From Candidatus Velthaea sp. (GTDB lineage: Bacteria > Vulcanimicrobiota > Vulcanimicrobiia > Vulcanimicrobiales > Vulcanimicrobiaceae): 64,000 bases of DNA. The stretch is from positions 74 to 64,073 of the forward strand of contig JBEKHC010000012.1 in NCBI GenBank assembly GCA_050012475.1. Reading direction: 5' to 3'. The notes below the pieces were generated by a model. It was given only the letters and a program-made list of their open reading frames with translations, had not been told where the DNA came from and searched no databases. Below, piece by piece: positions 15,943 through 50,783 of this stretch (its first letter is position 1; each line of letters begins with the position of its first letter). The translations under genes were made by a program, and so were the position numbers.

Positions 15943-16611
15943 TTATGAGCCGAAAACGCGCTTCGCGCCGAGGTAACGTGGCGCCCAGTACCTGTTGTGC
16001 AGGCTGGAGATCGCGACGCCGTGGCTCGAGGAGCTATGGATGAAGCGGTTGTTGCCCAGGTAGATGCCGACGTGCGAAACGCCGGGGGCATAGGTGTGAA
16101 AGAACACCAAATCGCCCGGCTTCATCCCGGCGGCGATGCGATGACCGGCATCGTACTGTGCGTCGGCCGTCCGCGGCAGGTGGATCCCGAGCAAGGCGTA
16201 GACGTGCTGCACGTAGCCCGAGCAGTCGAAGCCGCCCGGCCGCGTGCCACCGAAAACGAAGGGTGTTCCAATGAAGCGCAGCGCACTGCGGGTCAAGCTG
16301 GCCGCGATCGCCGAGCTGCGATTGACGATGCCCCCCGCAAAGCGCCGCAAGCGGCTGACCCGCGTCGCCGGCTCTGCGCTGCTGGGCTGCGCGGCAGGCG
16401 CGGCATTCCACATGACCAGATCTGCGCCGGCCGTCGGCTGTGCCGCGTCGACCGATTCAGGGTTGGCTGTTTGCGCGACCGCCGGAGACGCTGCTGCGGC
16501 GCTCGACACGGTGGTCGTGGCCGCGGGGAGGGTTTGGTCGGCGGCCGCAATACCGAAACCGCTCGCCGACAAAACAGAAACGAAGATCCCGGTGAGGATG
16601 AGACGACGCAC
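15943..16611 (-). CDS. NlpC/P60 (C40) peptidoglycan endopeptidase, secreted
   Basis: Signal peptide, an Ala/Pro linker, then GTPFVFGGTRPGGFDCSGYVQHVY ... GDLVFFHTY..VSHVGIYLGNNRFIHS (Cys-His catalytic pair). GTG start at 16611 with AAGGAG upstream. Confidence 0.85.
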   Translation of the reverse strand: MRRLILTGIFVSVLSASGFGIAAADQTLPAATTTVSSAAAASPAVAQTANPESVDAAQPTAGADLVMWNAAPAAQPSSAEPATRVSRLRRFAGGIVNRSSAIAASLTRSALRFIGTPFVFGGTRPGGFDCSGYVQHVYALLGIHLPRTADAQYDAGHRIAAGMKPGDLVFFHTYAPGVSHVGIYLGNNRFIHSSSSHGVAISSLHNRYWAPRYLGAKRVFGS

Positions 16612-16630
16612 GGACTGCTCCTTCTTCCCA

Positions 16631-16773
16631 ACACCTACGGGGTTAGTTGACGGATTAGGACGGAAAGAATCGCCCTCGGGCCGACCGGCCCGTTCACCCC
16701 ATGTCGGTGCGCGTTGCGAAACGCTCCCGACAACCGGAATCCCCCGCTCCGGCTCTCTACCGGACTCGGTGAC
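16631..16773 (-). promoter_or_regulatory. cyclic-di-AMP riboswitch (ydaO/yuaA class) in the NlpC/P60 leader
   Basis: The minus-strand leader reads CACCGAGUCCGGUAGAGAGCCGGAGCGGGGGAUUCC...CAUGGGGUGAACGG...GGGCGAUUCUUUCCGUCCUAAUCCGUCAACUAACCCCGUAGGUG. This matches my recollection of the conserved ydaO blocks (GAGCGGGGGA, GGGGUGAA, CCGUCAgCUAACCuCGUAaGcG) and the P1 closure CACC/GGUG. The SD and GTG follow within 20 nt. Confidence 0.7.
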
Positions 16774-16926
16774 ACTAGCAGATACGACGAAATACCCACG
16801 ACTGGGTACGCTTCAGTCGCTGAGGTGAGCTTGCACTCACCACAGCTTACTATATCGGTTGGGCTCTCATTTCCTTTTAGCCATGTGCTGCGCGACGCAA
16901 TCGTGCCGTCCTTCGCTATTACGACA

Positions 16927-18311: not shown

Positions 18312-18986
18312 CTAATTGGCTCCTGTCGCCGATGAACGGCTGAAGCGTGCGCGCACGCGGACGAGATTGGGCGAGACCGCAACGGCCCCCACTTCATCGC
18401 CCGCGCCGGTGACGGCGAGCGGACGAATCATCGCGTCGATGGCCGTGCCTTTTGCCGGCAGGGTGATCTCGACGCGCACTGCTTGAACGCGAGCGAGATC
18501 GGCGGCAATGCCCCGCACCGTCACCTGCGCGGGGTCGAGGCCGGCCGAATCGACGACGGTGTTCTTGAAGTCGCCGTTATAGGCAATCGAGATCGGAACG
18601 GTGCGTTCTTCGAGCCGATCGATGCTCAACGTGACCGACGCCGGCGTCAGCGATCGAATCTGCACATTCGGTGCGATGATTTGAACGGGGACGTTGAATA
18701 CACCGGGATCCGCGTTTGCGGCCAAATTGAGCACCGCCTCGACTTGATCCGGCTTGACCGGCGTGGTGTTGCGCGTGGCATCGATCGTCACCACGGCAAA
18801 CTTTTCGGTGTAGCGCGCCACATACCCCGCGCGCAGGCCGGTGACGACGATCGGCACGCTGAGCTGCTGATCGAAGCGTGCGGTAATGCTTGGATTGGCC
18901 GAAAAATGAAAATACGCCCAGGCCGCAACCGCGAGCGCAAAAGCAAATGCCTTAAGTGGGAAGTTTCGGCGAACGATCGACAGCAC
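18312..18986 (-). CDS. cdaR: YbbR-domain protein, CdaA regulator
   Basis: N-terminal TM (LKAFAFALAVAAWAYF) followed by repeated YbbR-like beta modules. It sits between cdaA and glmM as in the canonical operon. The GTG start overlaps the cdaA 3' end by 35 nt. Confidence 0.7.
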   Translation of the reverse strand: MLSIVRRNFPLKAFAFALAVAAWAYFHFSANPSITARFDQQLSVPIVVTGLRAGYVARYTEKFAVVTIDATRNTTPVKPDQVEAVLNLAANADPGVFNVPVQIIAPNVQIRSLTPASVTLSIDRLEERTVPISIAYNGDFKNTVVDSAGLDPAQVTVRGIAADLARVQAVRVEITLPAKGTAIDAMIRPLAVTGAGDEVGAVAVSPNLVRVRARFSRSSATGAN

Positions 18987-19824
18987 GCGGGATCCGGCTC
19001 AGCAGATTGGCCAGCATGGGGTTCACAACCTGGCGCATGCGGCGCGGCGGGCGCACGATGGCGGTCAACACTTTGTTGAGCCGTTCTTCGCCGTCGATCT
19101 GAACCGAGAGCCGCCCCGCGCGGGCCACCGAAACCGCGCCGGTCTCTTCCGAAACGACGACCACGACGGCATCGGTCTGTTCGCTCAAACCGATCGCCGC
19201 GCGATGGCGCGTCCCCACGTGGCGCTCTGCCGAGACGGCGTTTTCCGACAACGGGAGAAAGCATGCCGCGCCTTCGATCGTCGTGTCGCGCACGATGACC
19301 GCACCGTCGTGCAGCGGCGAACTCGTATTGAAAATCGCGAGCAGCAGCTCCACCGACAGCCGCGCATCGAGCGCCGTTCCGCTCTCGACATACTCGCGCA
19401 GTCCGGTCTGCTGCTCGACGACGATGAGGGCGCCCATGCGGCGGCGTGCCAGGGCGAAGGCGGATTGGGCGACGATCGCGGTTTGCTTGGCCGCGATTTC
19501 GTCGTCGGTCTCGCCCGCCGGCCGGGCGAAGAGCCGTCCGCGCCCGAGCTGTTCGAGGCCGCGCCGCAGTTCGGGTTGGAACACGATGGGCAGCGTGACG
19601 GCCGTGCCGAGCAGCAGGTACTGCATGACCGTCGCCAACACGAGCAGATGAAACAGGTTGGAAAGCGCTAAGATGATGACGAGTACGAAGAGGCCAAGCG
19701 TAATCTGCACGGCGCGGGTGCCGCGGATGAGGAGCAGCAAGTAATACGCCAGGATGGACGTCGCGATGATATCGGCGGCGTCGCTGATTCCGAACGAGAT
19801 CGACGTCAGACTTGCGGGGATCAC
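18952..19824 (-). CDS. cdaA: diadenylate cyclase (c-di-AMP synthase), membrane-anchored
   Basis: Three N-terminal TMs precede the DAC domain: SPLHDGAVIVRD, GTRHRAAIGLSEQTDAVVVVVSEETGAVSVA. The ORF-track extension to 20034 is Arg-rich junk. GTG at 19824 overlaps the stop of the upstream small ORF (GTGA). Confidence 0.85.
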   Translation of the reverse strand: MIPASLTSISFGISDAADIIATSILAYYLLLLIRGTRAVQITLGLFVLVIILALSNLFHLLVLATVMQYLLLGTAVTLPIVFQPELRRGLEQLGRGRLFARPAGETDDEIAAKQTAIVAQSAFALARRRMGALIVVEQQTGLREYVESGTALDARLSVELLLAIFNTSSPLHDGAVIVRDTTIEGAACFLPLSENAVSAERHVGTRHRAAIGLSEQTDAVVVVVSEETGAVSVARAGRLSVQIDGEERLNKVLTAIVRPPRRMRQVVNPMLANLLSRIPRAVDRSPKLPT

Positions 19825-20132
19825 GGCAAGTACGACTCGATGATCCGCGATCGATCGAGGGCCGGCTCCTCGAGCCCGCGAGCCGCGGCGCCGGCCGCGG
19901 CGTCGGGATCCCCGAACGCCGGGGCAAGCGCCGGAACGAACGCCGTCTCGATTGCGATGAGGTCGTCGATGAGTTCGGCGGGCGTCCGCTCCGCGTCGAA
20001 CCGCAGGCCGATCGTCGCACCCTCGGCGGTGCACTCCAGTATCCCCGCCGGCGCGCCCGGTCCGGCAAGTGCCTCCAATACGTTCGCGCGGACGAACGGA
20101 TCGGGAACGATGACGGTGCGCGCAAGTATCAC
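19821..20132 (-). CDS. hypothetical small acidic protein (103 aa) whose stop overlaps the cdaA start
   Basis: It is not a separate ORF in the track; it is the 3' tail of the 510-aa ORF 19821..21353. From GTG 20132 the hand translation reads VILARTVIVPDPFVRANVLEALAGPGAPAGILECTAEGATIGLRFDAERTPAELIDDLIAIETAFVPALAPAFGDPDAAAGAAARGLEEPALDRSRIIESYLP*. Third positions are mostly G/C and the Arg-rich junk signature is absent. The stop TGA overlaps the cdaA GTG. Confidence 0.5.
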   Translation of the reverse strand: MILARTVIVPDPFVRANVLEALAGPGAPAGILECTAEGATIGLRFDAERTPAELIDDLIAIETAFVPALAPAFGDPDAAAGAAARGLEEPALDRSRIIESYLP

Positions 20133-24920: not shown

Positions 24921-25385
24921 TCAGGGCTGAGGCTGCGCGCCTCCGTTCGGACCGGGGACGAACGCCTCGAGCTCGGGCAGCAGTTCGACACTCTCTTGTT
25001 CGTTCGGATCGGTTCGCGCAATCACCGCAACGCACGTCTCATCGGTGCTCGCGTTGTACGGCAAGTGCGGCACGTTGGCCGGGATATAAAAGAAATCGCC
25101 CGGCCCGACCACCGAGTGATGCTCGAGCTTGGGACCGTGCCAAACGCCGGACGTCCCGCTGATTCCGTAGATCGCGCTCTCGTGCGCCACGTGCCGATGC
25201 GCCCTGGCCCGGCTGCCGGGCGGAATGCGGACGAGCTGCATGTGAATTCCGCGCGCGCCGACCGTTTCAGCCGACACGCCGGCTGCATACACCAGTCCCT
25301 GCTTGCCCACGAACTGCTCGCCCGCACGAACGAGGCGGCAGCTTTGCGGCTCGGACTCGTCGTGCGAATGATCGATGCCGTCCAT
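24921..25385 (-). CDS. cupin-domain protein
   Basis: The cupin motifs read IPPGSRARAHRHVAHESAIYGISG ... GPGDFFYIPANVPH. Confidence 0.65.
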   Translation of the reverse strand: MDGIDHSHDESEPQSCRLVRAGEQFVGKQGLVYAAGVSAETVGARGIHMQLVRIPPGSRARAHRHVAHESAIYGISGTSGVWHGPKLEHHSVVGPGDFFYIPANVPHLPYNASTDETCVAVIARTDPNEQESVELLPELEAFVPGPNGGAQPQP

Positions 25386-25424
25386 TGGTGGTCGTCTCCC
25401 TTCGCGATTGCCCTCCGACGATGG

Positions 25425-26861
25425 TCACCAGTTCGAGCGCACCGGAATCGTGAAGACGAACGTGCGCTTGAGGCCGGTGTCCTCGGTCAAGCGAACGCTG
25501 CACGTTCCGGCGGCCTGCGCGCGCAGATCGAACTCGACGTAAGGTCCGACGCCTTGGAAATCCGCGAGCAACGGGGTTGCGCCGGCCGGCGGCGCGGGAT
25601 CGGTATAGCCGGGCGGAACATCGGAGTCATTGTCGGAGCCGACGTCGATGGTGCAGGGCGGCCACGTGCCGTCGATCTGCAGCGTGACGCCGCCGAAGGT
25701 ATTCGCGGCATTGTAGGTTGCGTCGTCCCGAAACAAGAGTTGAACCTGGTTGCCCGGCGGAACGCTCGGTGCACTCGGTGCTTTTGGATTTCCGGCAACG
25801 CCGTTGCAGTCCGTGTTCGGTTTGGCGGGAACGCAGACCGCGATGTCGGTGATGTTGCTGACGATCGCTTTCGTGTACGTCGGGATGGTGAAGGCCGGTG
25901 CGCTGCACGTTTGTCCGCTGCCGGCCGGCGTGCAGGGCACGTAAATCGGCGGACCGTCCAGTCCCACGAACGACGAGTCGGGCTGCGCGTTCGGGCCGAG
26001 GATGAAGTTCACGACGTCGCCGGCGTTCGTTCCAAACGTCGTGCTCGAGCCCGTCTGTCCGGGCGCGAGCACGCAGTAGAACGACGGCGTTCCCAAGAGG
26101 TGGATTCCCGCCAAGCCCGGTCCGGCATTCGGGAGAAAGCAGGCGCTTTGAAACACGGTTCCGCCCGCAACGTTCGGCGGATCGAGCGCAAGTGAATTGG
26201 GGACCGCTGCGTTCGAGGTGAGTACGCTGGCGGTGCCGGCAATCGCCGGGAGCTGCGTGAATGAGGTCGAGGTTTCCGGCAGGACGGAGATCGTCAATGC
26301 CGTTTTCGCCGGAAACGTCAATTGCGTGACGGTCGGGGTGAACGTGATGGTATGGCCCGCTCCCGTGGCATCGCCGAGCTTGGTCGACACGAGCGTTTGC
26401 GGAACCGGATTCGATTGATAGGCGCTTGCGCCGAACAGCAGTCCATCGACCGAACACGAAACCTTCACACTGAAGCGGTCGATCGCGACCGTTACCGGAT
26501 GCGCAGCGGGGTTGAACAGAACGATCGGCGGGATTGGCGGACAAGTACCGTTCCCCATCGTGTTCCCCGCGGCGGCCGCTCGCGCCGACGCGATCCCGAT
26601 GGTCGCGGGTGAATCCAATGTGTGCAGCGTGACGGAACCGGTAAGCTGCGCGGCAAGCGAAACGGTCGTCGTTACCGGACTCGCGCCGATACGTACGTCA
26701 ACCGATTGCGCGGCTGCCGGCGCATTCGTTGCCTGAATGCTGTCCGCTTGAGCGGCGACGCCGGCGGGCGCCGGAGACGAACCTCCGCCGCCGCTGCATG
26801 CACCAAGCCCGGCGGCGGCAACGGCCGCACTAGCCGTAAGAAACAACGTGCGTAAAAACAT
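25425..26861 (-). CDS. Cys-rich Thr/Pro/Ala-rich lipoprotein, function unknown
   Basis: ATG 26861 with GAGGAG upstream. The lipobox reads AAAGLGAC followed by SGGGGS. The body is beta-rich and low-complexity with more than 10 Cys. No recognised domain. Confidence 0.55.
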   Translation of the reverse strand: MFLRTLFLTASAAVAAAGLGACSGGGGSSPAPAGVAAQADSIQATNAPAAAQSVDVRIGASPVTTTVSLAAQLTGSVTLHTLDSPATIGIASARAAAAGNTMGNGTCPPIPPIVLFNPAAHPVTVAIDRFSVKVSCSVDGLLFGASAYQSNPVPQTLVSTKLGDATGAGHTITFTPTVTQLTFPAKTALTISVLPETSTSFTQLPAIAGTASVLTSNAAVPNSLALDPPNVAGGTVFQSACFLPNAGPGLAGIHLLGTPSFYCVLAPGQTGSSTTFGTNAGDVVNFILGPNAQPDSSFVGLDGPPIYVPCTPAGSGQTCSAPAFTIPTYTKAIVSNITDIAVCVPAKPNTDCNGVAGNPKAPSAPSVPPGNQVQLLFRDDATYNAANTFGGVTLQIDGTWPPCTIDVGSDNDSDVPPGYTDPAPPAGATPLLADFQGVGPYVEFDLRAQAAGTCSVRLTEDTGLKRTFVFTIPVRSNW

Positions 26862-26980
26862 TGCGCAGCTCCTCAACGGTGGTCTAGGCAAGTACCAGGG
26901 AACCGCGCACTCCGCCTGCACGGCGCGCAAGCCGTCCCTGCAAGCGGAGTGACTCGAGCAACGCGCGAACATCGGCGCTG

Positions 26981-29737
26981 ATGGAGCCTGCCACCGTCGG
27001 TCCGGCGCAGTCCGTCACCACGCTCTTCATCAGCCGAGCCGGCGCCGATGCCGACATCGCTGCGGCAGCCGCACGTGCGCTGCAATCCGCCGGCTACGGC
27101 GTGATTCTGCAGCAGTGGGATTTCGCCAATCGAAATTTCATCGAGCGCATGCATGAAACGCTCAGCAGCGGCGCGCGCGTCATCGCCCTGCTATCGCCCG
27201 CCTACCTGCGCAGCGATCATTGTCAGGCCGAGTGGATGAATGCGATTGCCGACGACCCGCTCAACCGTAAACGGCGGTTGGTCGTCCTGCGCATCGCCGA
27301 CTGCGAACCGCCGGGGCTGCTCGCCGGGATCGCCTATTGGGATCTCGTACCGGTTCGCGACGACGCGACGCTGTTCGCCCAGGTCGTCTGCGCGGCGGTG
27401 AGCGACGACGGAAGTGATGCGGTCGCGTCCGCCGCCGGCTATCGGTGCGAACCGCGCGCCGCGCCGGCTCCGCGTCCGCCGGTTCAAACCAATTTGCCCG
27501 CCGAACTCAAGAGTTTCGTCGGCCGCGAAACGGAAGTCGCCGAGATCGCCCGGCTGCTCGAAAATGCCCGCCTCGTCACGCTCGTCGGCGTGGGCGGCGT
27601 GGGCAAGACCAGCTGTTCGCTCAAAGCCGGAGCTTCGCTGGCCGCTAGCCGGCCGGACGGGGTCTGGTTCGTCGACCTCGCGCCGATCACCGACGCGACC
27701 CTCGTCGACGCCGAAGTTGCGGCGGTGTTTTCGCTCGTCGAAGCGTCGAATCGCTCGATCCTCGACCGGCTCGTCAAGCATCTGCGACCCAAACACACGT
27801 TGATCTTGCTCGACAATTGCGAGCACGTGCTCGCTGCGTGCTGCCGGCTGGCCGAGGCGGTGTTGCGCGCGTGTCCCGAGGTATCGCTGCTCGCAACGAG
27901 CCGCGAAGCGCTCAAAGTCGACGGCGAACGCGTGTACGCGATGCCGACGCTGGCCGTACCCGAGCGCAATGTGCGCCTCACCGTCGACGCGGCATCGAAA
28001 TACAGCGCGATCGCACTGTTCGTTGCGCGCGCCAGCGGGGCCGATTCCCGTTTCGCCTTGACGGCCGAAAACGTAGCCAGCGTCGCGGAGATCTGCCGCC
28101 GGCTCGACGGCATTCCGCTGGCGCTCGAACTAGCCGCGGCGCGCGTTCGCGTGCTGGCGCCGCGTCAACTCGAGCAGAAGCTCGACGAACGTTTCCGCAT
28201 TCTCACCGGCGGAGCGCGGACCGCGCTGCCGCGTCAGCAAACGATGCGCGCGCTCATCGACTGGAGTTACGATCTGCTCGACGCGCGCGAGCGATCGCTC
28301 TTGAGCAAGCTCTCGATTTTCGCCGGAAGTTTTTCGCTCGAGCCGGTCATCGCCGTTTGCAGCGATGCTGACTACGCCGATTTCGAAGTGCTCGACGGCC
28401 TGACGTCGCTGGTCGACAAATCGCTGGTGGTTGCCGAATCCTCGGACCTCGAAACGCGCTATCACCTGCTCGAGTCAATGCGGCAATATGCGCGCGAGCG
28501 GCTCGACGAGTTCGGGTCACGCGCTCCAACGGAGCGCCGGCACGCGCTCGCGTACACGGAGTTAGCCGAACAGCTCGAGAACGACTATGGGAGCACGCTG
28601 TATCGAACGTGGGTCGCCGGCGCCGAGCGGGAGATCGAGAACATTCGCGCCGCGCTGACGTGGTCGTTCGGGCCGCAGGGCGATGCCGCAGTCGGGCTGC
28701 GGCTCGCCGCAACGCTGCGCCGCATCTTCAACACTTCGCTGCCGGCCGAAGGCCGGCGTTGGATTCAAACGGCACTCGGACGGGTGGACGCCGGCTCAGC
28801 GCGCAACGTCGTGGCCCGGCTGGAGTTGGCCGATGCGCATCTGGCCTCGCGGCTCAACCAGCTGGATGCCGCGCTCGCGGCGGCGCGCCGCGCGCTGACC
28901 TCTTTCGAGGCCGACGGCGATCCGCGCGGCATCGCGAACGCGAAGCGCTGGGCGGGCCGTTCGCTGATCTATTTGGGTCAAGTGAGCGAAGGTGAAGAGC
29001 TGTTGCGCAGCGCGCTCGAGACCTACGAAACGCTCGGCTTCCGGAAAGTCGGCGGCGTCTTGCTCGATCTCGGCTCGGCGCGCTCCGCTTGCAGCGACAT
29101 CGCCGGTGCGCGCGGTTTTTTTGCGCGGGCACTCAACCGCTTCGAGGAAGATCAGGACGAAGGCAACGTCGCGATTGCGGCGGGAACCCTGGCCGAAGCC
29201 GAATTTCATGGCGGCGATGCGCAGGCGGCCGTCGCGCATGCGCAAGATGCGCTTTCCACTGCGCAACACCTTGCGCGCGACATCCTTGCCTGGCTTCAAA
29301 ACAACCTCGCGGCATACGCGATCGCGCTCGATCGATTCGACGAAGCGGGCCGGTACTCGGAACAAGTGCTGCAAAGCAGGCTCGAGATTCAATCGGAATT
29401 TTTGTTCGTCGTCGCATTGCAGCATGCGGCCGCGGTGCTCGCACTCGCACCCCCTGTGGATGCGCCGGGTACCTGCGCCGCGACGTGCCAACTGGGGGCG
29501 CGTTTGATCGGCTACGTCGACGAACGGATGCGCGCGATGGGCGCAAAGCGAGAGTTCACCGAGCAGTCGGATTACGATCGGGCGATGGCGCTCCTGACCG
29601 AGACGTTGGGTACTGCGGCGCTCGGCACGCTCGTGCTCGATGGAGCGAAGCTTTCCGAAGAGCAGGCGGTTGGATTGGCCTTGGCGGCGTCTGTGCGCCG
29701 GCCAAATCACGCTGCGATCGGCCGCGTTTCGACCTGA
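26981..29737 (+). CDS. TIR domain - NB-ARC/COG3903-type STAND ATPase - TPR-like repeat protein
   Basis: The N-terminal TIR_2-like block reads TLFISRAGADAD...VIALLSPAYLRSDHCQAEW. It is followed by FVGRETEV, Walker A LVGVGGVGKTS, Walker B TLILLDNCEH and the GLPL-type motif LDGIPLALELAAAR. About 400 aa of helical TPR-like repeats close the protein. Confidence 0.75.
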   Translation: MEPATVGPAQSVTTLFISRAGADADIAAAAARALQSAGYGVILQQWDFANRNFIERMHETLSSGARVIALLSPAYLRSDHCQAEWMNAIADDPLNRKRRLVVLRIADCEPPGLLAGIAYWDLVPVRDDATLFAQVVCAAVSDDGSDAVASAAGYRCEPRAAPAPRPPVQTNLPAELKSFVGRETEVAEIARLLENARLVTLVGVGGVGKTSCSLKAGASLAASRPDGVWFVDLAPITDATLVDAEVAAVFSLVEASNRSILDRLVKHLRPKHTLILLDNCEHVLAACCRLAEAVLRACPEVSLLATSREALKVDGERVYAMPTLAVPERNVRLTVDAASKYSAIALFVARASGADSRFALTAENVASVAEICRRLDGIPLALELAAARVRVLAPRQLEQKLDERFRILTGGARTALPRQQTMRALIDWSYDLLDARERSLLSKLSIFAGSFSLEPVIAVCSDADYADFEVLDGLTSLVDKSLVVAESSDLETRYHLLESMRQYARERLDEFGSRAPTERRHALAYTELAEQLENDYGSTLYRTWVAGAEREIENIRAALTWSFGPQGDAAVGLRLAATLRRIFNTSLPAEGRRWIQTALGRVDAGSARNVVARLELADAHLASRLNQLDAALAAARRALTSFEADGDPRGIANAKRWAGRSLIYLGQVSEGEELLRSALETYETLGFRKVGGVLLDLGSARSACSDIAGARGFFARALNRFEEDQDEGNVAIAAGTLAEAEFHGGDAQAAVAHAQDALSTAQHLARDILAWLQNNLAAYAIALDRFDEAGRYSEQVLQSRLEIQSEFLFVVALQHAAAVLALAPPVDAPGTCAATCQLGARLIGYVDERMRAMGAKREFTEQSDYDRAMALLTETLGTAALGTLVLDGAKLSEEQAVGLALAASVRRPNHAAIGRVST

Positions 29738-29777
29738 ACCGAAAACGTTTGGGCGAGGAGCGGCGAAGGGTGCGCGT

Positions 29778-31259
29778 ATGTATCTGGGCTTAGACATCGG
29801 CACCACGGCGACCAAAGCCGTGCTGACCGACGAACAGCATACCATCGTTGCGTCGGCAACCGCGACGTACGCGCTCCATCAGCCCGGATCCGGGATCAGC
29901 GAGATCGATCCGGCGTTATGGATCGACGCGATCCGTTCGGTCGTCCACCGGCTTCACACGACTGCACCGAGCCGGCTTGCGGTGGTGCGCGCGATCGGTT
30001 TGTCCGGTCAGATGCACAGTCTGGTGACACTCGATGCAGACGGAAAAGCGATCCGTCCGGCGATCCTCTGGAATGACGAACGCGGCGACCGGGAAGCGCG
30101 CACGTTGAGTCAAACGATGCCCGGCATCGGCGAACTCACCGGCGTGCTGCCGATGGCGAGCTTCACCGCAGCAAAACTGCTCTGGCTGAAGAATACGTGT
30201 CCCGACGACTTCGCGCGCACCGCGCACGTGGTGTGGGTTAAGGATTACATTCGCTTTTGGCTCACCGGTGAGTTCGCGACCGACATGTCTGACGCCGCCG
30301 GAGCGCAGCTGCTCGACGAAAAGAATCGTTGCTGGGCTCAACCCGTCGTCGACACGATCGGCCTCGATGAGCGAACGCTGCCCCGGCTCGTCGAAGGAAC
30401 GCAGCCAACGGGAAAACTGCTCGACCGGGTGGCCGCGGAGTTGGGTCTTCCGCCGGGCACGCCGATCGCGGCCGGCGGCGGCGATGCAGCGACGGGAGCG
30501 CTCGGTTTGGGATGCGTCGACGCCGGCAACTCATTCATCTCGCTGGGCACCGGGGCGGTGTTCGTCGAGATTCAGGACACCTACGTGCCGCGGCCGGAAA
30601 CGTTGCTCCATACGTTTGCCCACTGCATTCCCAAACGCTGGTATCAGATGGCGGCGATGCTCAACGGCGCGAGTTGCCTGGCCTGGGTCGCGCGGCTTTG
30701 CCGCGAGCCCGACCTCGACACGCTCTTGAAGCGGGTCGAGAGCCGCGGCGATCAACCCGGACGCCTCCTGTTCGCACCGTACCTGCGGGGAGAACGCACG
30801 CCGCATAACGACGTTCATGCGCGCGGTGCTTTCGTCGGACTCGATGCCGCGTGCGACGACACCGATCTGACCAAGGCGGTTCTCGAAGGCGTCGCGTTTT
30901 CGCTGCGGCAAGGACAAGATCTGCTCGTTGGCGACGCAAAGCCGTCCAACCCGATCGGCATGATCGGCGGCGGAGCGCGCAGCGTTTACTGGAGCAAGCT
31001 GATTGCAACGGTGCTCGATCGGCCCCTGACGATCTTTCGCAGCGCGGATATGGCCGCGGCCGTCGGAGCCGCAATGCTCGCCAGAATCTCGATCGGCGGC
31101 GCCGATCCGTATGCTGCCCATTCTTGGCCGGTTGCGCGCGTCGTCGAACCCGATCCGCAGCACGTGGCCGCGTATGCCGAACGCTACGCCGCCTTTCTCC
31201 CGCTGTACGCGGCGCTGGCGCCGTTCGCATACCCCCGCCGCTTATCCGAGCATTCCTGA
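29778..31259 (+). CDS. xylB: xylulokinase (FGGY carbohydrate kinase)
   Basis: MYLGLDIGTTATKAVL, GLSGQMHS, ILWNDERG, and the C-terminal FGGY block GGGARS. ATG at 29778, not the ORF-track start at 29640. Confidence 0.8.
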   Translation: MYLGLDIGTTATKAVLTDEQHTIVASATATYALHQPGSGISEIDPALWIDAIRSVVHRLHTTAPSRLAVVRAIGLSGQMHSLVTLDADGKAIRPAILWNDERGDREARTLSQTMPGIGELTGVLPMASFTAAKLLWLKNTCPDDFARTAHVVWVKDYIRFWLTGEFATDMSDAAGAQLLDEKNRCWAQPVVDTIGLDERTLPRLVEGTQPTGKLLDRVAAELGLPPGTPIAAGGGDAATGALGLGCVDAGNSFISLGTGAVFVEIQDTYVPRPETLLHTFAHCIPKRWYQMAAMLNGASCLAWVARLCREPDLDTLLKRVESRGDQPGRLLFAPYLRGERTPHNDVHARGAFVGLDAACDDTDLTKAVLEGVAFSLRQGQDLLVGDAKPSNPIGMIGGGARSVYWSKLIATVLDRPLTIFRSADMAAAVGAAMLARISIGGADPYAAHSWPVARVVEPDPQHVAAYAERYAAFLPLYAALAPFAYPRRLSEHS

Positions 31260-44065: not shown

Positions 44066-45412
44066 ATGTCATTTCCCAAGAAAGTCACAATGCGTCACTT
44101 ATTTCTCCCGAGCGCGATAACGTTAGCTCTCGCACTGAGCGCCTGCGGCGGGTCGAACAGCGGCACCGCCCTTCCGCAACAATCGACGTTGACGACGTCG
44201 GCACAGCGGACGTTGCGCGCACCACTCGGATCGAAGAGCATTCTGCCCGAGACGAGTGCTACCACCACGCAAGCGGGACTGTGCACGAAACCGGCAGATG
44301 CAGCGCATGCCGGCTGTTTCGCGACGATCCGCACCGACTCGGTGATCAGTTCGATCTTCCCGGACTCCGTCTGGGGTTTGACTCCCAGAGATTTGAGTTC
44401 ACTCTACGCGTATCCGGCTCCGGGATGGCAAGGAACGGCAGGCGCCGGCCAGACCATCGCGGTCGTCGTTGCTGGTGACTACGAACTGGCCGAATCCGAT
44501 TTGGGCGTCTATCGCTCGCACTTCAGCCTGCCGCCCTGTACGACGGCCAACGGCTGCTTCAAGAAAGTCGGCGCCGCCGCGACCGGGCAGACCGCCCAAA
44601 CCGGCAGTTCGGCGTCGGTGTCGGCGCATCCAACGACTGCGACGGCGATCGGCTGGGCCGGCGAAACCGACACGGACACGCAAATGGTTTCGGCCGTCTG
44701 TCCGAATTGCAAAATTATCGTCGCCGAAGCGGCATCGGACAGCATGACCGACCTCGGCATGGCCGTGGAGGCCGCGATCGCCGCGAACGCTTCGATCATC
44801 AACGTGAGCTTCGGCGCCACCGAGAGCAGCAGCGACGTTGCGTGGTCTTCGCAGTACAACGGCATGAAACACGTGAAATTAGTTGCCGCCGCAGGCGACT
44901 GGGGCTACGGCGTGTACTACCCGGCGTCGGATCCCAGCGCGATTGCGGTCGGCGGCACCTCGCTCTCCGCGAGCGGCTCGACGATTTCCGAAACCGCGTG
45001 GGCCGGGACCGGCAGCGGCTGCAGCGCATACTTCAGCAACCCCGGATGGCAGCATCCGCCGTCGGTCACCGGCACCTGCACGCGGCGCAACGTCGTCGAC
45101 GTCTCGGCCGTGGCCGATCCGCTGACCGGCGTGGCCATCTACGACAGCTCGCTCTTCGGTATCGTCGGCGGCTGGTCGATCTTCGGCGGCACGAGCGTCT
45201 CGGCGCCGATCATCGCCGGGATGAATGCACTCGCGGCCAATACCGCGCGCGGCCAAGGCGCACAACTCCTGTACAGCGCTGCTTCGTCTGCCTTCCTCCC
45301 GGTGACGAGCGGTTCGAACGGAACCTGCAGCCCGCAGTATCTGTGCACGGCGCTCACGGGCTACAACGGCCCGACGGGACTCGGTATTCCTCAAGGGCTC
45401 GGCGGCTTCTAG
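44066..45412 (+). CDS. S53 (sedolisin-like) / S8 superfamily serine peptidase, lipoprotein
   Basis: The lipobox reads LALALSAC. IAVVVAGDY...DLGVYRSHFSLPPC, GWAGETDTDTQM (Glu/Asp block) and the C-terminal GGTSVSAPIIAGMNAL (catalytic Ser) are present. No long pro-domain is seen. Confidence 0.6.
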   Translation: MSFPKKVTMRHLFLPSAITLALALSACGGSNSGTALPQQSTLTTSAQRTLRAPLGSKSILPETSATTTQAGLCTKPADAAHAGCFATIRTDSVISSIFPDSVWGLTPRDLSSLYAYPAPGWQGTAGAGQTIAVVVAGDYELAESDLGVYRSHFSLPPCTTANGCFKKVGAAATGQTAQTGSSASVSAHPTTATAIGWAGETDTDTQMVSAVCPNCKIIVAEAASDSMTDLGMAVEAAIAANASIINVSFGATESSSDVAWSSQYNGMKHVKLVAAAGDWGYGVYYPASDPSAIAVGGTSLSASGSTISETAWAGTGSGCSAYFSNPGWQHPPSVTGTCTRRNVVDVSAVADPLTGVAIYDSSLFGIVGGWSIFGGTSVSAPIIAGMNALAANTARGQGAQLLYSAASSAFLPVTSGSNGTCSPQYLCTALTGYNGPTGLGIPQGLGGF

Positions 45413-45418
45413 GCCGCC

Positions 45419-48013
45419 GTGGTCCCGCATATGGATAGCCGACGAGCGAGGATTCAAGCGGCAATCGGCCGCGCCTCACACCTGCCGGTGACACTTCTGG
45501 TGGCGCCGGCAGGAACGGGAAAGAGCACAGCACTCGGACATTTCCTCGAATCGATCGATGAATCGGTTGACGGCGCGGCGCTGCGATTCGACGTGCGGGC
45601 CGCGCACACGACCCTGACCCGATTCGTTCGCGGGGTCGCCGCGACGCTCCAGCCCAAACTTCCCAAAGTCTCCCAGTCGCTGTCGATCGCTCATGAGCGC
45701 GCGACACAATCGGCGCGACCCGCCGACGTTCTGGCAATCTGGCTCGCCGAGCACCTTCGCGACACCCGGCGGACCATCGTCATCGACAACTACCATCATT
45801 GCGAGAACGATCCCACGATCGCCGCGTTCGTCGCGGGCGTCGTGGAACGGACCCGGCCCACGACCCGCTGGATCATCGCAACCCGCTCGGCCGCCCAGCT
45901 CCCGTTCGCGACCTGGCTCGCGCGCGGCGACACGACGATGCCGATCGGCGAGGCCCAGTTACGACTCACGGCTGCGGAAGCGGCATTCTATACCGAACGA
46001 ATCGCACCACGGCTCGACGCTCACGCCGCACGACAACTGCTTGAAGCGACGAGCGCTTCGATCGGCCAGATGCTCTTCGCGCTTCAGACTACCGCGGCGG
46101 ACGCCGCGATCGCCAAACGCGTGCTCGACGCAGGCGGGAACGCGTTCGAACGCTGTGTCGACGAGACGCTCGCGCTGCTCACACCCGTCGAACGACGGCT
46201 CGTCATCGAGAGCAGCCGGTTCCCCGATCTCGACGAAACGCTGCTGTCAGCTGCCGGACACCTCGACGCGCATCGCCAAATCGCTTCATTGCAAGCTCTT
46301 ATCCCGCAAGCATTCGAGGGCCATGGGCCGCAGCTTCGCTACAAGACGCTCTTCGCCGACGTGCTGTGGGACCGCCTCGTGGCGCAAGGTGTCGACGCGG
46401 TCCACGACGCGCACGCCCGAACCGGACACGCGCTCGCGACCTGCGACCGCATCGTCGAAGCGCTTGCGTACTACATTCACGGACGTCAATTCAGCGCAAT
46501 TGCGCAACTCATCGAATCACGCGGCCTGGCCTTCGTCGAAGCGGGCTGCGGGGACACGATCCAAGAAGCGATCGAAACGCTCGATCCCATCGCGCGCACC
46601 TCGAGTCCGGTCATTCTCGCGATTCGAGCGACGTTCGAGTCGCGGCTGGGCCGGTTCGATACCGCGGAGTCGTTGTTTCAACTAGCGCTCGACCGTGCCA
46701 CCGACGCCGGCGTCCGCAATCACATCGCTTACCAATACGGAACGCACTTGCTGCGGTTTCAGCGCCCCGAAGCGATCGAATTGCTCGAAACACTCGCCGA
46801 AGACGGCCGGGCATCAGGCGATCTGCGCTGCTACGCGCGCTCGGCGCTCGGACCCGCCTACGTCTTCGCGCGTCGGTATGACGAAGCGTTAGCCAGCATC
46901 GATGCTGCGCTAGAGCTCGCCCAGACATCGTTCAGCACACACCTGCGGGCGAGAGCCTTCCATCAAGCCGCCTACGTCGCACTGTTTCGGGGCGACGGCG
47001 CACGGGCGAAAACGTTGGCAACGCTCTCACTGGAACTGGCGGAACGGGACGGCTTCTTCGACATCTCCGCCGGTGCGTTGACCGTGCTCTATAACGTGGC
47101 CTCAGACCTCGAGGACGATCCGCTCGAAAGCCTGCGTCTGCTCGATGCGGTCGCGGAATGTGCCGCCAAGTCGGGCAGTCTCACCAACCATCTCTTGGCG
47201 CTGGTCGCCAAACTCGAGATCGAAGTCGAACGCGGCGACGAAGACGCGATCGGCGAACTCGACGAGAAACTCCGCACGATCGACGTGCAAAGCTGCGGGC
47301 GCGCGATGTATGAGGCGCTCGTCGCTTCGCAGGCCTTGCGCGCCGGCTGGGACGGCGATTTCGCGGGCGCGTATCATTTGCTGTTGTCGAGCGCCGAATT
47401 GCAGTGGAGCGCCGACCGGAAAGCGCTGCGCTGGGCCGAGATTTCCGTCTATGCGGCCGCTGCCGGGTTGGCCGTCGAAGCGACGATGGCCGTGCGCTCG
47501 TCGGTCGAGTTGCTCGACTCGCTCGCGGGCGGACATCGGATCGCGCGCGCTCGCCTCTTTCTCGCACTGACGATGATCCTCTTAGGGCGGATCGAATCGG
47601 CTGCTGAACTCTTCGAACTCATCGATGCCGATCCGCATGCTTCGTCACCGCGGCTGCAGGCGCTGCGCCGAGCGCTGCAGGCGCTCTCCGAGCGGTATCG
47701 CGGAATTCGAAACCAAGGCGCCTTGATCGGCCTGTTTCAAACGCTCGCCGAGCAGCAGTTCGGCGGCGTGGCGCGCATGATCATGACTTTCCCGCTGGCC
47801 GACAATGCCACGCTGCGCCTGGGCAGCCTCAATTGGGGCGAACGCTCGATCCTGGCCAAGCTGACGCGGGGCGACCTGCTCGTCAGCGCGCGCCAAGTCG
47901 AAACGATCGTCGCGAAACTCGGTTGCCACGACATCGCGACGGCCATGCGGGCCGTCACGCGCAACGCTCACTCGCCCGAACTGGGCGCCCACGTCATCCT
48001 CCAGGAGGCCTGA
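45419..48013 (+). CDS. MalT/LuxR-like STAND ATPase regulator
   Basis: Walker A reads LLVAPAGTGKST and Walker B reads TIVIDNYHH. A long helical repeat region follows. The short, degenerate C-terminal LuxR-type HTH reads ERSILAKLTRGDLLVSARQVETIVAKLG. GTG 45419 or ATG 45431 lies 7-19 nt after the peptidase stop. Confidence 0.7.
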   Translation: MVPHMDSRRARIQAAIGRASHLPVTLLVAPAGTGKSTALGHFLESIDESVDGAALRFDVRAAHTTLTRFVRGVAATLQPKLPKVSQSLSIAHERATQSARPADVLAIWLAEHLRDTRRTIVIDNYHHCENDPTIAAFVAGVVERTRPTTRWIIATRSAAQLPFATWLARGDTTMPIGEAQLRLTAAEAAFYTERIAPRLDAHAARQLLEATSASIGQMLFALQTTAADAAIAKRVLDAGGNAFERCVDETLALLTPVERRLVIESSRFPDLDETLLSAAGHLDAHRQIASLQALIPQAFEGHGPQLRYKTLFADVLWDRLVAQGVDAVHDAHARTGHALATCDRIVEALAYYIHGRQFSAIAQLIESRGLAFVEAGCGDTIQEAIETLDPIARTSSPVILAIRATFESRLGRFDTAESLFQLALDRATDAGVRNHIAYQYGTHLLRFQRPEAIELLETLAEDGRASGDLRCYARSALGPAYVFARRYDEALASIDAALELAQTSFSTHLRARAFHQAAYVALFRGDGARAKTLATLSLELAERDGFFDISAGALTVLYNVASDLEDDPLESLRLLDAVAECAAKSGSLTNHLLALVAKLEIEVERGDEDAIGELDEKLRTIDVQSCGRAMYEALVASQALRAGWDGDFAGAYHLLLSSAELQWSADRKALRWAEISVYAAAAGLAVEATMAVRSSVELLDSLAGGHRIARARLFLALTMILLGRIESAAELFELIDADPHASSPRLQALRRALQALSERYRGIRNQGALIGLFQTLAEQQFGGVARMIMTFPLADNATLRLGSLNWGERSILAKLTRGDLLVSARQVETIVAKLGCHDIATAMRAVTRNAHSPELGAHVILQEA

Positions 48014-48021
48014 GTCGTTCG

Positions 48022-48969
48022 ATGCTTACCCTCAACGATCCGCAAAAATATCTCGATCGCTGCCGTGACGAAATCGTTTGGCGCATCATCAGCGACGGGG
48101 TTCTCGAAGGGCAGCGGACGCTCGCGGTCGGTGTCGTCGCCGAAGAATTCTTCGATCGTTTGATGATCGCGCTCGAGCGCAGCTCGTATCTCGACATCGT
48201 CACCTGGGTGGACCGGATTTGTGAATCGTATCGCGGCTTTCCCCAAATTGGTTCGATGCTCGCCAGCGCGTGCCGGTCGGTCATCGCGCAACTGGGCGAC
48301 GCGGAAGTGGGGGCTGACGAACTCGTGCGCGGCCTCGGCGCACTCGAACACTCGATCTGCGCGGTCGCCTTCAAGCCGCGTCCGCTGCGCGTCAAGTCGG
48401 AGGCTCCGCTGGATGAAGTCGACGTCCTGATCCGGGGACTGATCGATCGCCTCGAGGCAGCCGATCCGCTGTCCGCCGAACATTCGCTCGCGGTGTCCGC
48501 TTGGTGCCGGCGCATCGGGCGGCGGCTCTCGCTTTCGGAGACCGAAGTCACCTACATCGCACGCTGCGGCCTCATGCACGACGTCGGCAAAGTCAAAGTC
48601 GCCGGTGAGATTCTCACGGCGCCGCGCGCCTTGACCGACAGCGAATGGGTGGTGATGCGCTCGCATTCGCTCGCCAGCGAAGAGATCGTGGGCGCGCACA
48701 AAGCGTTGCGGAGCTTCGCGCCCGCCGTGCGGTCGCATCACGAGCGCCTCGATGGCCGGGGATATCCCGACGGCCTCGTCGGTTCACAAATTACGCTCGC
48801 GACGCGAATCGTCACGGTCGCCGACGCCTTCAACGCGATGATCGGACGCCGCGCCTATCGGCTGCCGATCTCGCCCGAAAACGCGCTGGACCGTTTGCAC
48901 GAAAACCGCGGCGGTCAATTCGATCCGATCGTCGTCGAAGCGATGGCCAGCGTCGTCGGACACAATTGA
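48022..48969 (+). CDS. HD-GYP domain protein (c-di-GMP phosphodiesterase class)
   Basis: GLMHDVGKVKV and HHERLDGRGYPDGL are present. ATG 48022 has AGGAGG inside the last codons of the upstream gene. The ORF-track start at 47833 is overlap junk. Confidence 0.8.
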   Translation: MLTLNDPQKYLDRCRDEIVWRIISDGVLEGQRTLAVGVVAEEFFDRLMIALERSSYLDIVTWVDRICESYRGFPQIGSMLASACRSVIAQLGDAEVGADELVRGLGALEHSICAVAFKPRPLRVKSEAPLDEVDVLIRGLIDRLEAADPLSAEHSLAVSAWCRRIGRRLSLSETEVTYIARCGLMHDVGKVKVAGEILTAPRALTDSEWVVMRSHSLASEEIVGAHKALRSFAPAVRSHHERLDGRGYPDGLVGSQITLATRIVTVADAFNAMIGRRAYRLPISPENALDRLHENRGGQFDPIVVEAMASVVGHN

Positions 48970-49000: not shown

Positions 49001-49088
49001 GGCGTTCGGCGCTTCGGGCCAAGCCGCGGCGGCGTTTGGCGCTTCGGGCTATGGTGCGTCGCGTTTCGGCTGCGCCGGAAAGTTCGGT
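49001..49088. repeat. about 30-bp periodic degenerate direct repeat (3 units)
   Basis: GGCGTTCGGCGCTTCGGGC (49001) and GGCGTTTGGCGCTTCGGGC (49031) differ at 1 nt. A weaker third copy, GCGTTTCGGCTGCGCC, starts at 49061. Confidence 0.6.
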
Positions 49089-50662: not shown

Positions 50663-50783
50663 CCGTTCGTAATTTCGGCAATTCTGCACGGAAAACGATG
50701 CTGCTGCCCGGCGCGAGCGTTTTTCGCAGCCCAATTGGGTCGCGCGCAGGCGCGCGCGAGGCCATCTTTACCGAGAAAAAATG

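Follow-up and report, generated by a model that had tools for sequence, protein, structure and literature searches.

In this study, a 64-kb stretch of contig JBEKHC010000012.1 from Candidatus Velthaea sp. (in the following the window, i.e., the whole stretch of DNA that was analysed) revealed a gene for a TIR - AfsR-like STAND NTPase - TPR protein, located between a divergently oriented gene for a Cys-rich lipoprotein and a gene for an FGGY-family (xylB-like) kinase (29775-31259). A preceding sequence-only reading of this DNA had reported exactly this open reading frame (ORF; 26981..29737, plus strand, 918 aa), this order of domains, and this placement between the two flanking genes in housekeeping surroundings, and all of this was confirmed, as TIR_2, nSTAND1, and TPR_12 were all matched in Pfam and the three NTPase motifs were present. 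The gene, which stems from an Eremiobacterota (Vulcanimicrobiota) genome, encodes an intact NLR-like signalling ATPase, and comparison with related loci showed that it forms a conserved two-gene module with the lipoprotein gene. The features of the locus are the following:

26981..29737, plus strand: TIR - AfsR-like STAND NTPase - TPR gene, ATG start, 918 aa (Pfam TIR_2, nSTAND1, and TPR_12)
27026..27355, plus strand: TIR domain, residues 16-125 (Pfam TIR_2, PF13676, E = 5.4e-23)
27194-27235, plus strand: SPAYLRSDHCQAEW motif, residues 72-85, holding the catalytic-position Glu84 (codon 27230-27232)
27443..27499, plus strand: Pro/Ala-rich linker, residues 155-173 (compared with P0002, P0003, and P0004)
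27509..28540, plus strand: STAND NTPase (nucleotide-binding oligomerisation domain, NOD) and winged helix (from motifs, family alignment, and alignment with the AfsR NOD)
27587-27613, plus strand: Walker A motif GVGGVGKTS, residues 203-211
27800-27826, plus strand: Walker B motif LILLDNCEH, residues 274-282
28103-28138, plus strand: GLPL-like motif LDGIPLALELAA, residues 375-386
28598..29734, plus strand: C-terminal TPR-like helical repeats, presumed sensor (TPR_12 and profile matches)
26862..26980, no strand: divergent intergenic region of 119 nt, common to both genes
25425..26861, minus strand: partner lipoprotein gene, 478 aa, divergent from the STAND gene, with lipobox LGAC and Cys22 (codon 26796-26798)

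The P-loop STAND NTPase begins near residue 177, and its Walker A, Walker B, and GLPL-like motifs were invariant or nearly so in a family alignment of 25 members. The only NTPase model of Pfam that was passed is nSTAND1 (28.6 bits, cutoff 27.1). Since NB-ARC (PF00931) did not reach its gathering threshold (17.4 bits, cutoff 23.5; residues 188-279 only) and AfsR is the nearest solved relative, the label NB-ARC given to this domain in the sequence-only reading could not be kept. A winged helix after the NTPase is annotated as HTH_77 (precomputed) on homologue P0001, and the TPR_12 match (31.9 bits) covers residues 730-799. A phmmer search with the full protein against PDB resulted only in CheY noise (E > 0.1), and it took a family profile to detect AfsR and solved TIRs. 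With the ATPase-TPR family profile, the nearest solved relative was AfsR, the SARP-NOD-TPR regulator of Streptomyces (PDB 8K60 and 8JKE), matched over its NOD and TPR regions with an E-value of 4e-15. Further matches of this profile were to the TPRs of LGN/Pins and, faintly, to the NB-ARC of the plant TIR-NLR Roq1 (E = 0.002). A scan of the protein against NCBIfam gave sub-cutoff matches only (HaaT, FxSxx_TPR, and FxsC_Nterm).

The TIR domain scored 82 bits with TIR_2 (cutoff 28). An AlphaFold2 model of residues 1-154, with a predicted local distance difference test score (pLDDT) of 84, was compared with solved TIRs (MyD88, TLR, AbTir, SARM1, SPARTA, and TIR-STING) using Foldseek and gave template modelling scores (TM-scores) of 0.55-0.63. 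E84 was invariant in an alignment of 26 sequences of the TIR subfamily, as were A69, S72, Y75, S78, A83, and D92, and a comparison of the subfamily profile with all PDB sequences paired E84 with the 'WC..EL' Glu of TLR1 and Cat1. Counting along this profile-to-PDB alignment revealed the equivalences E84 = Cat1 E74, S78 = Cat1 S68, and S18 = Cat1 S7. The NADase site of Cat1 is described as lined by S7, H8, N9, N10, D33, S68, and E74, with E74A being inactive, and TIR NADase sites are said to form between stacked TIR domains upon multimerisation (PMC12162218). Other TIR subtypes on the same NTPase (P0012 and P0086) also possess a Glu at the catalytic position. Thus, the two features on which the sequence-only reading depended, a significant TIR match and a catalytic Glu, were both recovered, the latter by alignment to Cat1. 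The alignments show that the TIR domain retains the active-site Glu of NADases, and catalytic activity is predicted.

The lipoprotein partner

The start of the lipoprotein is probably M38 of the longest ORF. The protein has no match in Pfam, and its family comprises only 12 clusters in 5.8 billion proteins. Throughout the family, the lipobox Cys is nearly invariant and 10 further Cys are invariant, all of which are present in the window copy. An AlphaFold2 model (pLDDT 78.5) is all-beta with several sandwiches, so the lipoprotein can be predicted to be a disulfide-rich protein of beta-sandwich type. Alpha-2-macroglobulin, complement, and ZU5 were considered as leads to its function and rejected, as Foldseek against PDB gave TM-scores of 0.13-0.24, i.e., a generic multi-beta-sandwich resemblance.

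In 13 of 13 loci examined, the lipoprotein gene adjoins a STAND-TPR gene of the window's clade. The loci group as follows by the orientation of the pair and by the N-terminal head of the STAND protein:

Divergent pair: window, L001, L002, L006, L009, L013, L014, L015, L016
Convergent pair: L003 (same region as L007), L008
Co-directional pair: L011, L012
TIR head: window, L001, L003, L006, L016
TIR and cyclase head: L002, L008, L014, L015
Cyclase-only head: L009, L013
GAF head: L011, L012

Beyond the pair, the genes were different at every locus examined. When the loci were ranked by identity to the window copies, lipoprotein and STAND protein gave nearly the same order, and a scan of genome contigs with the lipoprotein as query detected 3 loci only. 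Mere vertical synteny as an explanation of the pairing is ruled out by the differing flanks and by the changing orientation and gene order. The lipoprotein and the STAND-TPR protein are therefore shown to be a unit that is co-inherited or co-moving. Since the lipoprotein accompanies the ATPase-TPR part whatever its head, a connection with the output of the TIR is less likely than one with sensing or regulation, and our guess is that the lipoprotein belongs to the input or regulatory side.

Two descriptions of the sequence-only reading have to be revised at this point. The protein had been regarded as a solitary, single-protein sensor, but the lipoprotein gene is its neighbour in all loci examined, and five relatives add a gene for a SLOG-SLATT-like protein (see below). 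Likewise, the gene had been called monocistronic, which is unsupported, as only 37 nt separate its stop codon from the kinase gene, with no terminator predicted between them.

An alignment of nine of the divergent intergenic regions showed that short blocks are kept among close relatives, namely AGCTCCTCAA, which corresponds to the ribosome-binding site of the lipoprotein gene on the minus strand, CGCCTGCA, and GAGCGGAC. No clear operator or RNA element was visible in this alignment, and Rfam revealed nothing at the locus. A scan of positions 25300-29900 found no sigma-70-like promoter, and terminator-like sites in the same region occurred at chance level, all of them inside the gene.

Heads of the NTPase family and the SLOG-SLATT-like gene

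The search with the full protein resulted in at least 7,988 homologues, nearly all of which have the same NTPase-TPR part. Among these matches listed, the homologues with a named source come almost exclusively from Eremiobacterota/Vulcanimicrobiota (Baltobacteraceae, Velthaea, Elarobacter, and others), and the dominant architecture is a class III adenylate/guanylate cyclase followed by ATPase, HTH_77, and TPR, with a length of about 930 aa. Minor heads on the same NTPase family are SARP, XRE-HTH, GAF, TIR, and TIR plus cyclase. The sequence-only reading had named LuxR/SARP as the usual heads of this chassis; SARP does occur, though as a minor head, and cyclases dominate in the Eremiobacterota lineage. 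A literature search for adenylate cyclase in Eremiobacterota found nothing.

Besides an identical entry, the closest relatives were P0002 (73% identity), which has a TIR head only, and P0003 and P0004 (68-69% identity). The latter two carry a near-identical TIR and, exactly at the position of the Pro/Ala linker of the window protein, a class III cyclase of about 190 aa. In L015 and L017, the linker position is likewise occupied by a class III cyclase domain. A tblastn search of the 64-kb window revealed no cyclase remnant.

An exhaustive search with the TIR domain alone resulted in 4,966 cluster representatives. Among the top 150, 63 were 590-1,540 aa long, almost all with an N-terminal TIR, and in the 52 long TIR proteins scanned, Pfam detected TPR_12 (42 proteins), AAA_16 (39), DUF7779 (38), and NB-ARC (29). 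Overall identity of these long proteins to the window protein was 19-43%. The TIR subfamily thus normally sits on an NB-ARC-DUF7779-TPR chassis and the present NTPase family mostly bears class III cyclases, which speaks for the head swap assumed in the sequence-only reading. Its specific form, which these sequence comparisons support, would be that a TIR typical of classical TIR-NB-ARC-TPR proteins came to lie on an AfsR-like, cyclase-associated NTPase expanded in Eremiobacterota.

In a neighbour-joining tree of the NTPase regions, the window protein clustered with those of L001, L016, L014, L002, L013, L006, and L015. Within this clade, TIR-only, TIR-plus-cyclase, and cyclase-only heads are intermixed and the SLOG-SLATT-like gene is patchily distributed, and therefore domains and genes must have been lost, or gained, repeatedly. 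The window copy represents a reduced state, without the cyclase and without the SLOG-SLATT-like gene, in which both remaining genes are intact and all conserved residues are present. In L016 (L016:183-2932, minus strand), the TIR-STAND-TPR gene was called as two ORFs of 623 aa and 270 aa, which points to a frameshift, pseudogene formation, or faulty assembly.

The SLOG-SLATT-like gene lies within the module of L002, L003, L006, and L008, where it encodes 539-609 aa and occurs in three gene orders. A fifth relative, L017, has it directly upstream of a TIR-cyclase-STAND gene, co-directional and with a gap of 9 nt, so that the five relatives show four gene orders in all; four of the five relatives belong to the 13 lipoprotein loci. 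The N-terminus of the protein (…GV(T/S)GHR…GADQLAAE…) matched DprA and the YspA/cpYpsA SLOG family below threshold, and its C-terminal half consists of two hydrophobic helix pairs with a weak match to SLATT_1. PADLOC gave weak matches to ShosA and PsyrA, and in a distant member of the family (L044:9767-11599), DUF4231 and SLATT_1 both score above their Pfam cutoffs. In a reverse test, a metagenome scan starting from the SLOG-SLATT-like family resulted in 48 loci. Of the 18 longer loci among them, 11 have a TIR gene immediately beside the SLOG-SLATT-like gene, and for the whole set of 48 the number is at least 15, the TIR partners of this wider family being TIR-TPR, TIR-Sel1, TIR-DUF4189, TIR-FHA, and C-terminal-TIR proteins. 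Judged by analogy, this adjacency of SLOG-SLATT-like and TIR genes is a genomic signature of Thoeris-type signalling. Its occurrence in the five relatives therefore points to a signal-emitting role of the ancestral module rather than to a self-contained NADase.

Several other arrangements were noticed around these genes. In L001, the locus of the closest relative, a 252-aa TIR_2-DUF8082 protein (L001:2119-2877, plus strand) is encoded beside the lipoprotein gene, in the slot that the SLOG-SLATT-like gene occupies in other relatives. It showed weak PADLOC matches to models of an Argonaute-associated TIR and of SAVED-TIR, and its position suggests that partners are replaced within the module. 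In L043, L044, L046, and L051, two paralogous SLOG-SLATT-like genes lie in tandem, with a TIR_2-DUF4189 gene after them (e.g., L044:7974-12997); this resembles a Thoeris-type system in which the effector has been duplicated, and the PADLOC models of 2023 do not recognise it except for one weak '4TM effector' match. Furthermore, in L019 (3771-7363) and L023 (1820-5457), the SLOG-SLATT-like gene is divergent to a gene for a C-terminal-TIR protein (a region of about 410-440 aa, then TIR_2), which is adjoined in both by a gene for a FecR-domain and TPR protein, a recurring configuration of TIR plus repeat sensor.

Genomic context

Upstream of the pair, the window encodes PriA, a DHQ-synthase-like protein, and a cupin, and downstream the FGGY kinase, a PBP-OmpA protein, and a GH15 glucoamylase. 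Further left lie genes for IlvD/Edd, altronate dehydratase, a GlmM-like mutase, CdaA, RsgA, and an NlpC/P60 protein. In a small sample, the neighbours of the module were housekeeping genes in the window, L002, L009, and L011, and mobile or toxin-antitoxin genes in L003. The latter module (L003:3389-8997, on an Eremiobacterota contig of 2.5 Mb) lies inside an island with rve/IS110 transposase, PemK/MazE, WYL, and Uma2 genes, so that the homologues are not confined to conserved non-defence contexts. The same island also contains an ADP-ribosylglycohydrolase gene beside a gene for a dual-specificity phosphatase, which could bear on ADP-ribose signalling.

Elsewhere in the window, some further signalling genes were identified. 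A c-di-AMP riboswitch of the ydaO/yuaA type (69.6 bits; 16617-16781, minus strand) lies upstream of the NlpC/P60 hydrolase gene (15943-16611, minus strand), with cdaA (DAC and CdaA_N domains; 18952-20034, minus strand) and the gene for the GlmM-like phosphoglucosamine mutase close to it. A 548-aa protein encoded at 49088-50734 (minus strand) combines GGDEF (residues 138-298) with a STAND NTPase (AAA_16/AAA_22/nSTAND1, residues 321-452) and has no TPR. Its NTPase shares 27.5% identity with that of the TIR-STAND protein. Here too, a nucleotide-signal generator is joined to a STAND ATPase. A Peptidase_S8 (subtilase) gene (44066-45412, plus strand) is followed after 6 nt by a gene for an 864-aa STAND (AAA_22/NPHP3_N) and TPR protein (45419-48013), the 3' end of which is overlapped by the longest ORF of an HD-GYP-like HD_5 gene (47833-48969, plus strand). 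This subtilase and STAND-TPR pair could be a protease-STAND conflict or signalling system; PADLOC gave no match for either gene. Between positions 33000 and 44000, the guanine-cytosine (GC) content drops from about 0.66 to 0.59-0.62 in a region with the GH15 glucoamylase, a beta-lactamase-family protein, and an alpha/beta hydrolase, and no mobile-element genes were seen in the scanned ORFs there.

Proposed function and comparison with known systems

Two things were already known before this analysis, namely the TIR-STAND-TPR architecture, found in bacterial proteins that have been known from sequence for two decades, and the anti-phage activity of a single-gene TIR-NLR. The latter, from P4 satellites of E. 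coli, protects against phages (Rousset et al. 2022, PMC9122126). Like the window protein, TIR-NLR and Avs proteins unite effector, STAND NTPase, and repeat-based sensor in one polypeptide, with oligomerisation as the accepted model of activation. In contrast to them, the window protein has a conserved lipoprotein neighbour, its relatives also have a separate membrane effector, and there is no detectable sequence relationship (PADLOC, including its Avs models, gave no match).

Kaur, Burroughs, Iyer and Aravind (2020; PMC7159879) describe TIR/AP-ATPase genes linked to FxSxx peptide systems and propose cNMP (cyclic nucleotide monophosphate) cyclase, GGDEF, and TIR domains as signal generators with SLATT as the responsive pore. 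The TIR - NB-ARC (AP-ATPase) - TPR proteins have the same order of domains as the window protein, and its TIR belongs to the subfamily that heads them. A further likeness lies in the weak NCBIfam matches of the window protein to FxSxx_TPR and FxsC_Nterm. Unlike these proteins, however, the window protein has an AfsR-like NTPase of the nSTAND1/HTH_77 kind, lacks DUF7779, stays below the NB-ARC cutoff, and reaches the 19-43% identity given above. No lipoprotein partner is mentioned in the passages considered here.

The Thoeris types used for comparison are type I (TIR protein ThsB and SIR2-SLOG protein ThsA), type III (TIRs and a SLOG effector), and type VII (TIR and ThsH), as given in a recent survey. 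There, the SLOG domain of ThsA binds TIR-made 3'cADPR (a form of cyclic ADP-ribose) and the SLATT effector ThsH responds to canonical cADPR produced by a TIR; by its own account, the survey removed TIRs of Avs proteins and standalone proteins (Yirmiya et al. 2025, bioRxiv 10.64898/2025.12.03.692087). The relatives L002, L003, L006, L008, and L017 likewise pair a TIR protein with a neighbouring SLOG-SLATT-like protein. They differ in that TIR and STAND-TPR sensor form one polypeptide, which in some cases also includes a class III cyclase, and in the lipoprotein as a third constant component. In the 64-kb window, no TIR gene stands beside an effector gene with a signal-binding domain, as a Thoeris system would have it; lacking the effector, the window locus is therefore not a Thoeris system. 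With regard to AfsR and the class III cyclase-ATPase-TPR proteins, the head of the window protein is a TIR instead of a DNA-binding SARP or a cyclase, so that direct transcriptional activation is not its output.

Based on these comparisons, a ligand-triggered role in conflict or anti-phage defence, exerted via TIR catalysis, has in our view about an even chance of being correct. By analogy to AfsR, Avs, and NLR proteins, and to TIR enzymes with sites between stacked TIRs, a ligand at the TPR region would lift autoinhibition, whereupon the NTPase domain would oligomerise in a nucleotide-dependent manner, and the oligomers would bring TIR domains together to form composite active sites that cleave nicotinamide adenine dinucleotide (NAD+). 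Within the ancestral module of three genes, this reaction would probably yield a nucleotide of the cyclic ADP-ribose type, which would activate the SLOG-SLATT-like protein and lead to a breach of the membrane. Since this gene is absent from the window, the output there would be either a direct lowering of NAD+ or a signal to a receiver encoded elsewhere.

Several results weigh against such a defence role. PADLOC-DB v2, a check proposed with the sequence-only reading, assigned the window protein to no family at E <= 1, and it gave no match for the lipoprotein and no meaningful match for the closest SLOG-SLATT-like proteins or the other STAND genes of the window. Other TIR heads on the same NTPase gave weak matches at the level of the TIR only. 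The surroundings of the locus are housekeeping, with no GC anomaly at it and no integrase or transposase near it, and the entire 64-kb window contains no SLOG-SLATT-like homologue, no second TIR gene, and no other recognised effector gene. In the two closest SLOG-SLATT-like proteins, both the SLOG and the SLATT assignment remain below the Pfam thresholds. Of the lipoprotein loci, 9 are TIR-headed, 4 of these with the SLOG-SLATT-like gene, and 4 are without a TIR, none of these with it; the difference is not significant (Fisher p = 0.23), and several of the contigs are short. Finally, the huge lineage-specific expansion of the NTPase with mostly cyclase heads resembles ordinary signalling as much as immunity.

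This last point leads to physiological signalling as an alternative, which we consider rather unlikely, in which the protein would be one of many AfsR-like STAND-TPR paralogues of Eremiobacterota that convert an intracellular cue into a second messenger or into transcription by way of their heads (class III cyclase, GGDEF, GAF, SARP, HTH, or TIR). The TIR would then make an ADP-ribose-derived messenger or assemble, in a pathway tied to an envelope lipoprotein and reporting, e.g., envelope or nutrient status. Such a role would suit an NTPase family of at least 7,988 homologues in which cyclases are the prevailing heads and SARP, HTH, and GAF occur as variants, the transcription regulator AfsR as closest solved relative, and the housekeeping context without a PADLOC match. 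It is also consistent with the lipoprotein beside cyclase-only and GAF-headed versions, which have neither a TIR nor a SLOG-SLATT-like gene, and with the GGDEF-STAND, HD-GYP-like, GGDEF-EAL, and CdaA genes and the c-di-AMP riboswitch in the window. However, the TIR keeps the catalytic Glu and the Ser residues of NADases, and the module moves between genomic sites and swaps its heads rapidly, with one copy in a transposase/toxin-antitoxin island. In addition, the literature on TIR/STAND proteins compared here gave no non-immune role for a catalytic bacterial TIR-STAND protein.

It is improbable that the window copy is an orphaned remnant, i.e., a decaying or stranded leftover of the three-gene module that lost cyclase and effector and has no productive output. 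The 64 kb without a SLOG-SLATT-like gene, the relatives at 68-70% identity that keep TIR-plus-cyclase heads and in some cases the effector gene, the repeated losses implied by the patchy heads and effector on the tree, and the split STAND gene of L016 (623-aa and 270-aa pieces) would agree with such a decay. Yet the ORF is intact over 918 codons with all catalytic and NTPase motifs conserved, the lipoprotein is intact with all 10 invariant Cys, and a receiver gene could lie beyond the window. Moreover, the two-gene state recurs in L001, L014, L016, and the cyclase- and GAF-headed loci, which suggests that the pair is a functional unit by itself.

Very improbable is a non-enzymatic TIR that acts by homotypic assembly or as a scaffold, as in animal TLR and MyD88, and recruits another TIR protein: the top sequence and structure matches are indeed non-enzymatic animal TIRs (TLR1 and MyD88) and L001 has its separate TIR_2-DUF8082 protein beside the pair, but the catalytic-position Glu is invariant in the subfamily and also present in the P0012 and P0086 subtypes, the Ser residues equivalent to Cat1 S7 and S68 are conserved, the window encodes no second TIR protein, and the likeness to TLR1 is no argument against catalysis because TLR1 also has the Glu.

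If the proposed defence role by TIR catalysis is followed further, the window locus could be a reduced form of an undescribed conflict system of Eremiobacterota, consisting of a STAND-TPR protein with TIR and/or class III cyclase, a SLOG-SLATT-like pore as receiver, and an obligatory disulfide-rich surface lipoprotein. In this full form, the proposal is doubtful. New in any case are a very rare lipoprotein family as the constant genomic partner of one STAND-TPR clade, whatever its head, and an AfsR-like NTPase that carries a TIR head; in the relatives, it is the combination in one locus of a SLOG-SLATT-like protein and an NLR-like sensor whose fused head is a TIR, in many cases together with a cyclase. 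The window copy, being without the effector, is the least informative member, and the main interest lies in the relatives and in the partnership with the lipoprotein. The loci with TIR, TIR-plus-cyclase, cyclase-only, and GAF heads, with or without the effector gene, offer a natural comparison series for the exchange of outputs on one sensor, in a module from a poorly studied, uncultured phylum.

If functional, the relatives would indicate that STAND-fused TIRs could be Thoeris-like generators of a signal and not solely effectors that deplete NAD+. The undescribed system, if it exists, would merge the self-contained sensing of Avs proteins with the second-messenger signalling of Thoeris. The lipoprotein would then be a new kind of component, which could be guarded as a host target; alternatively, the cytoplasmic TPR sensor could read its precursor as a ligand. 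In this way, the lipoprotein could link the status of the envelope or the adsorption and entry of phages to an intracellular NLR-like switch.

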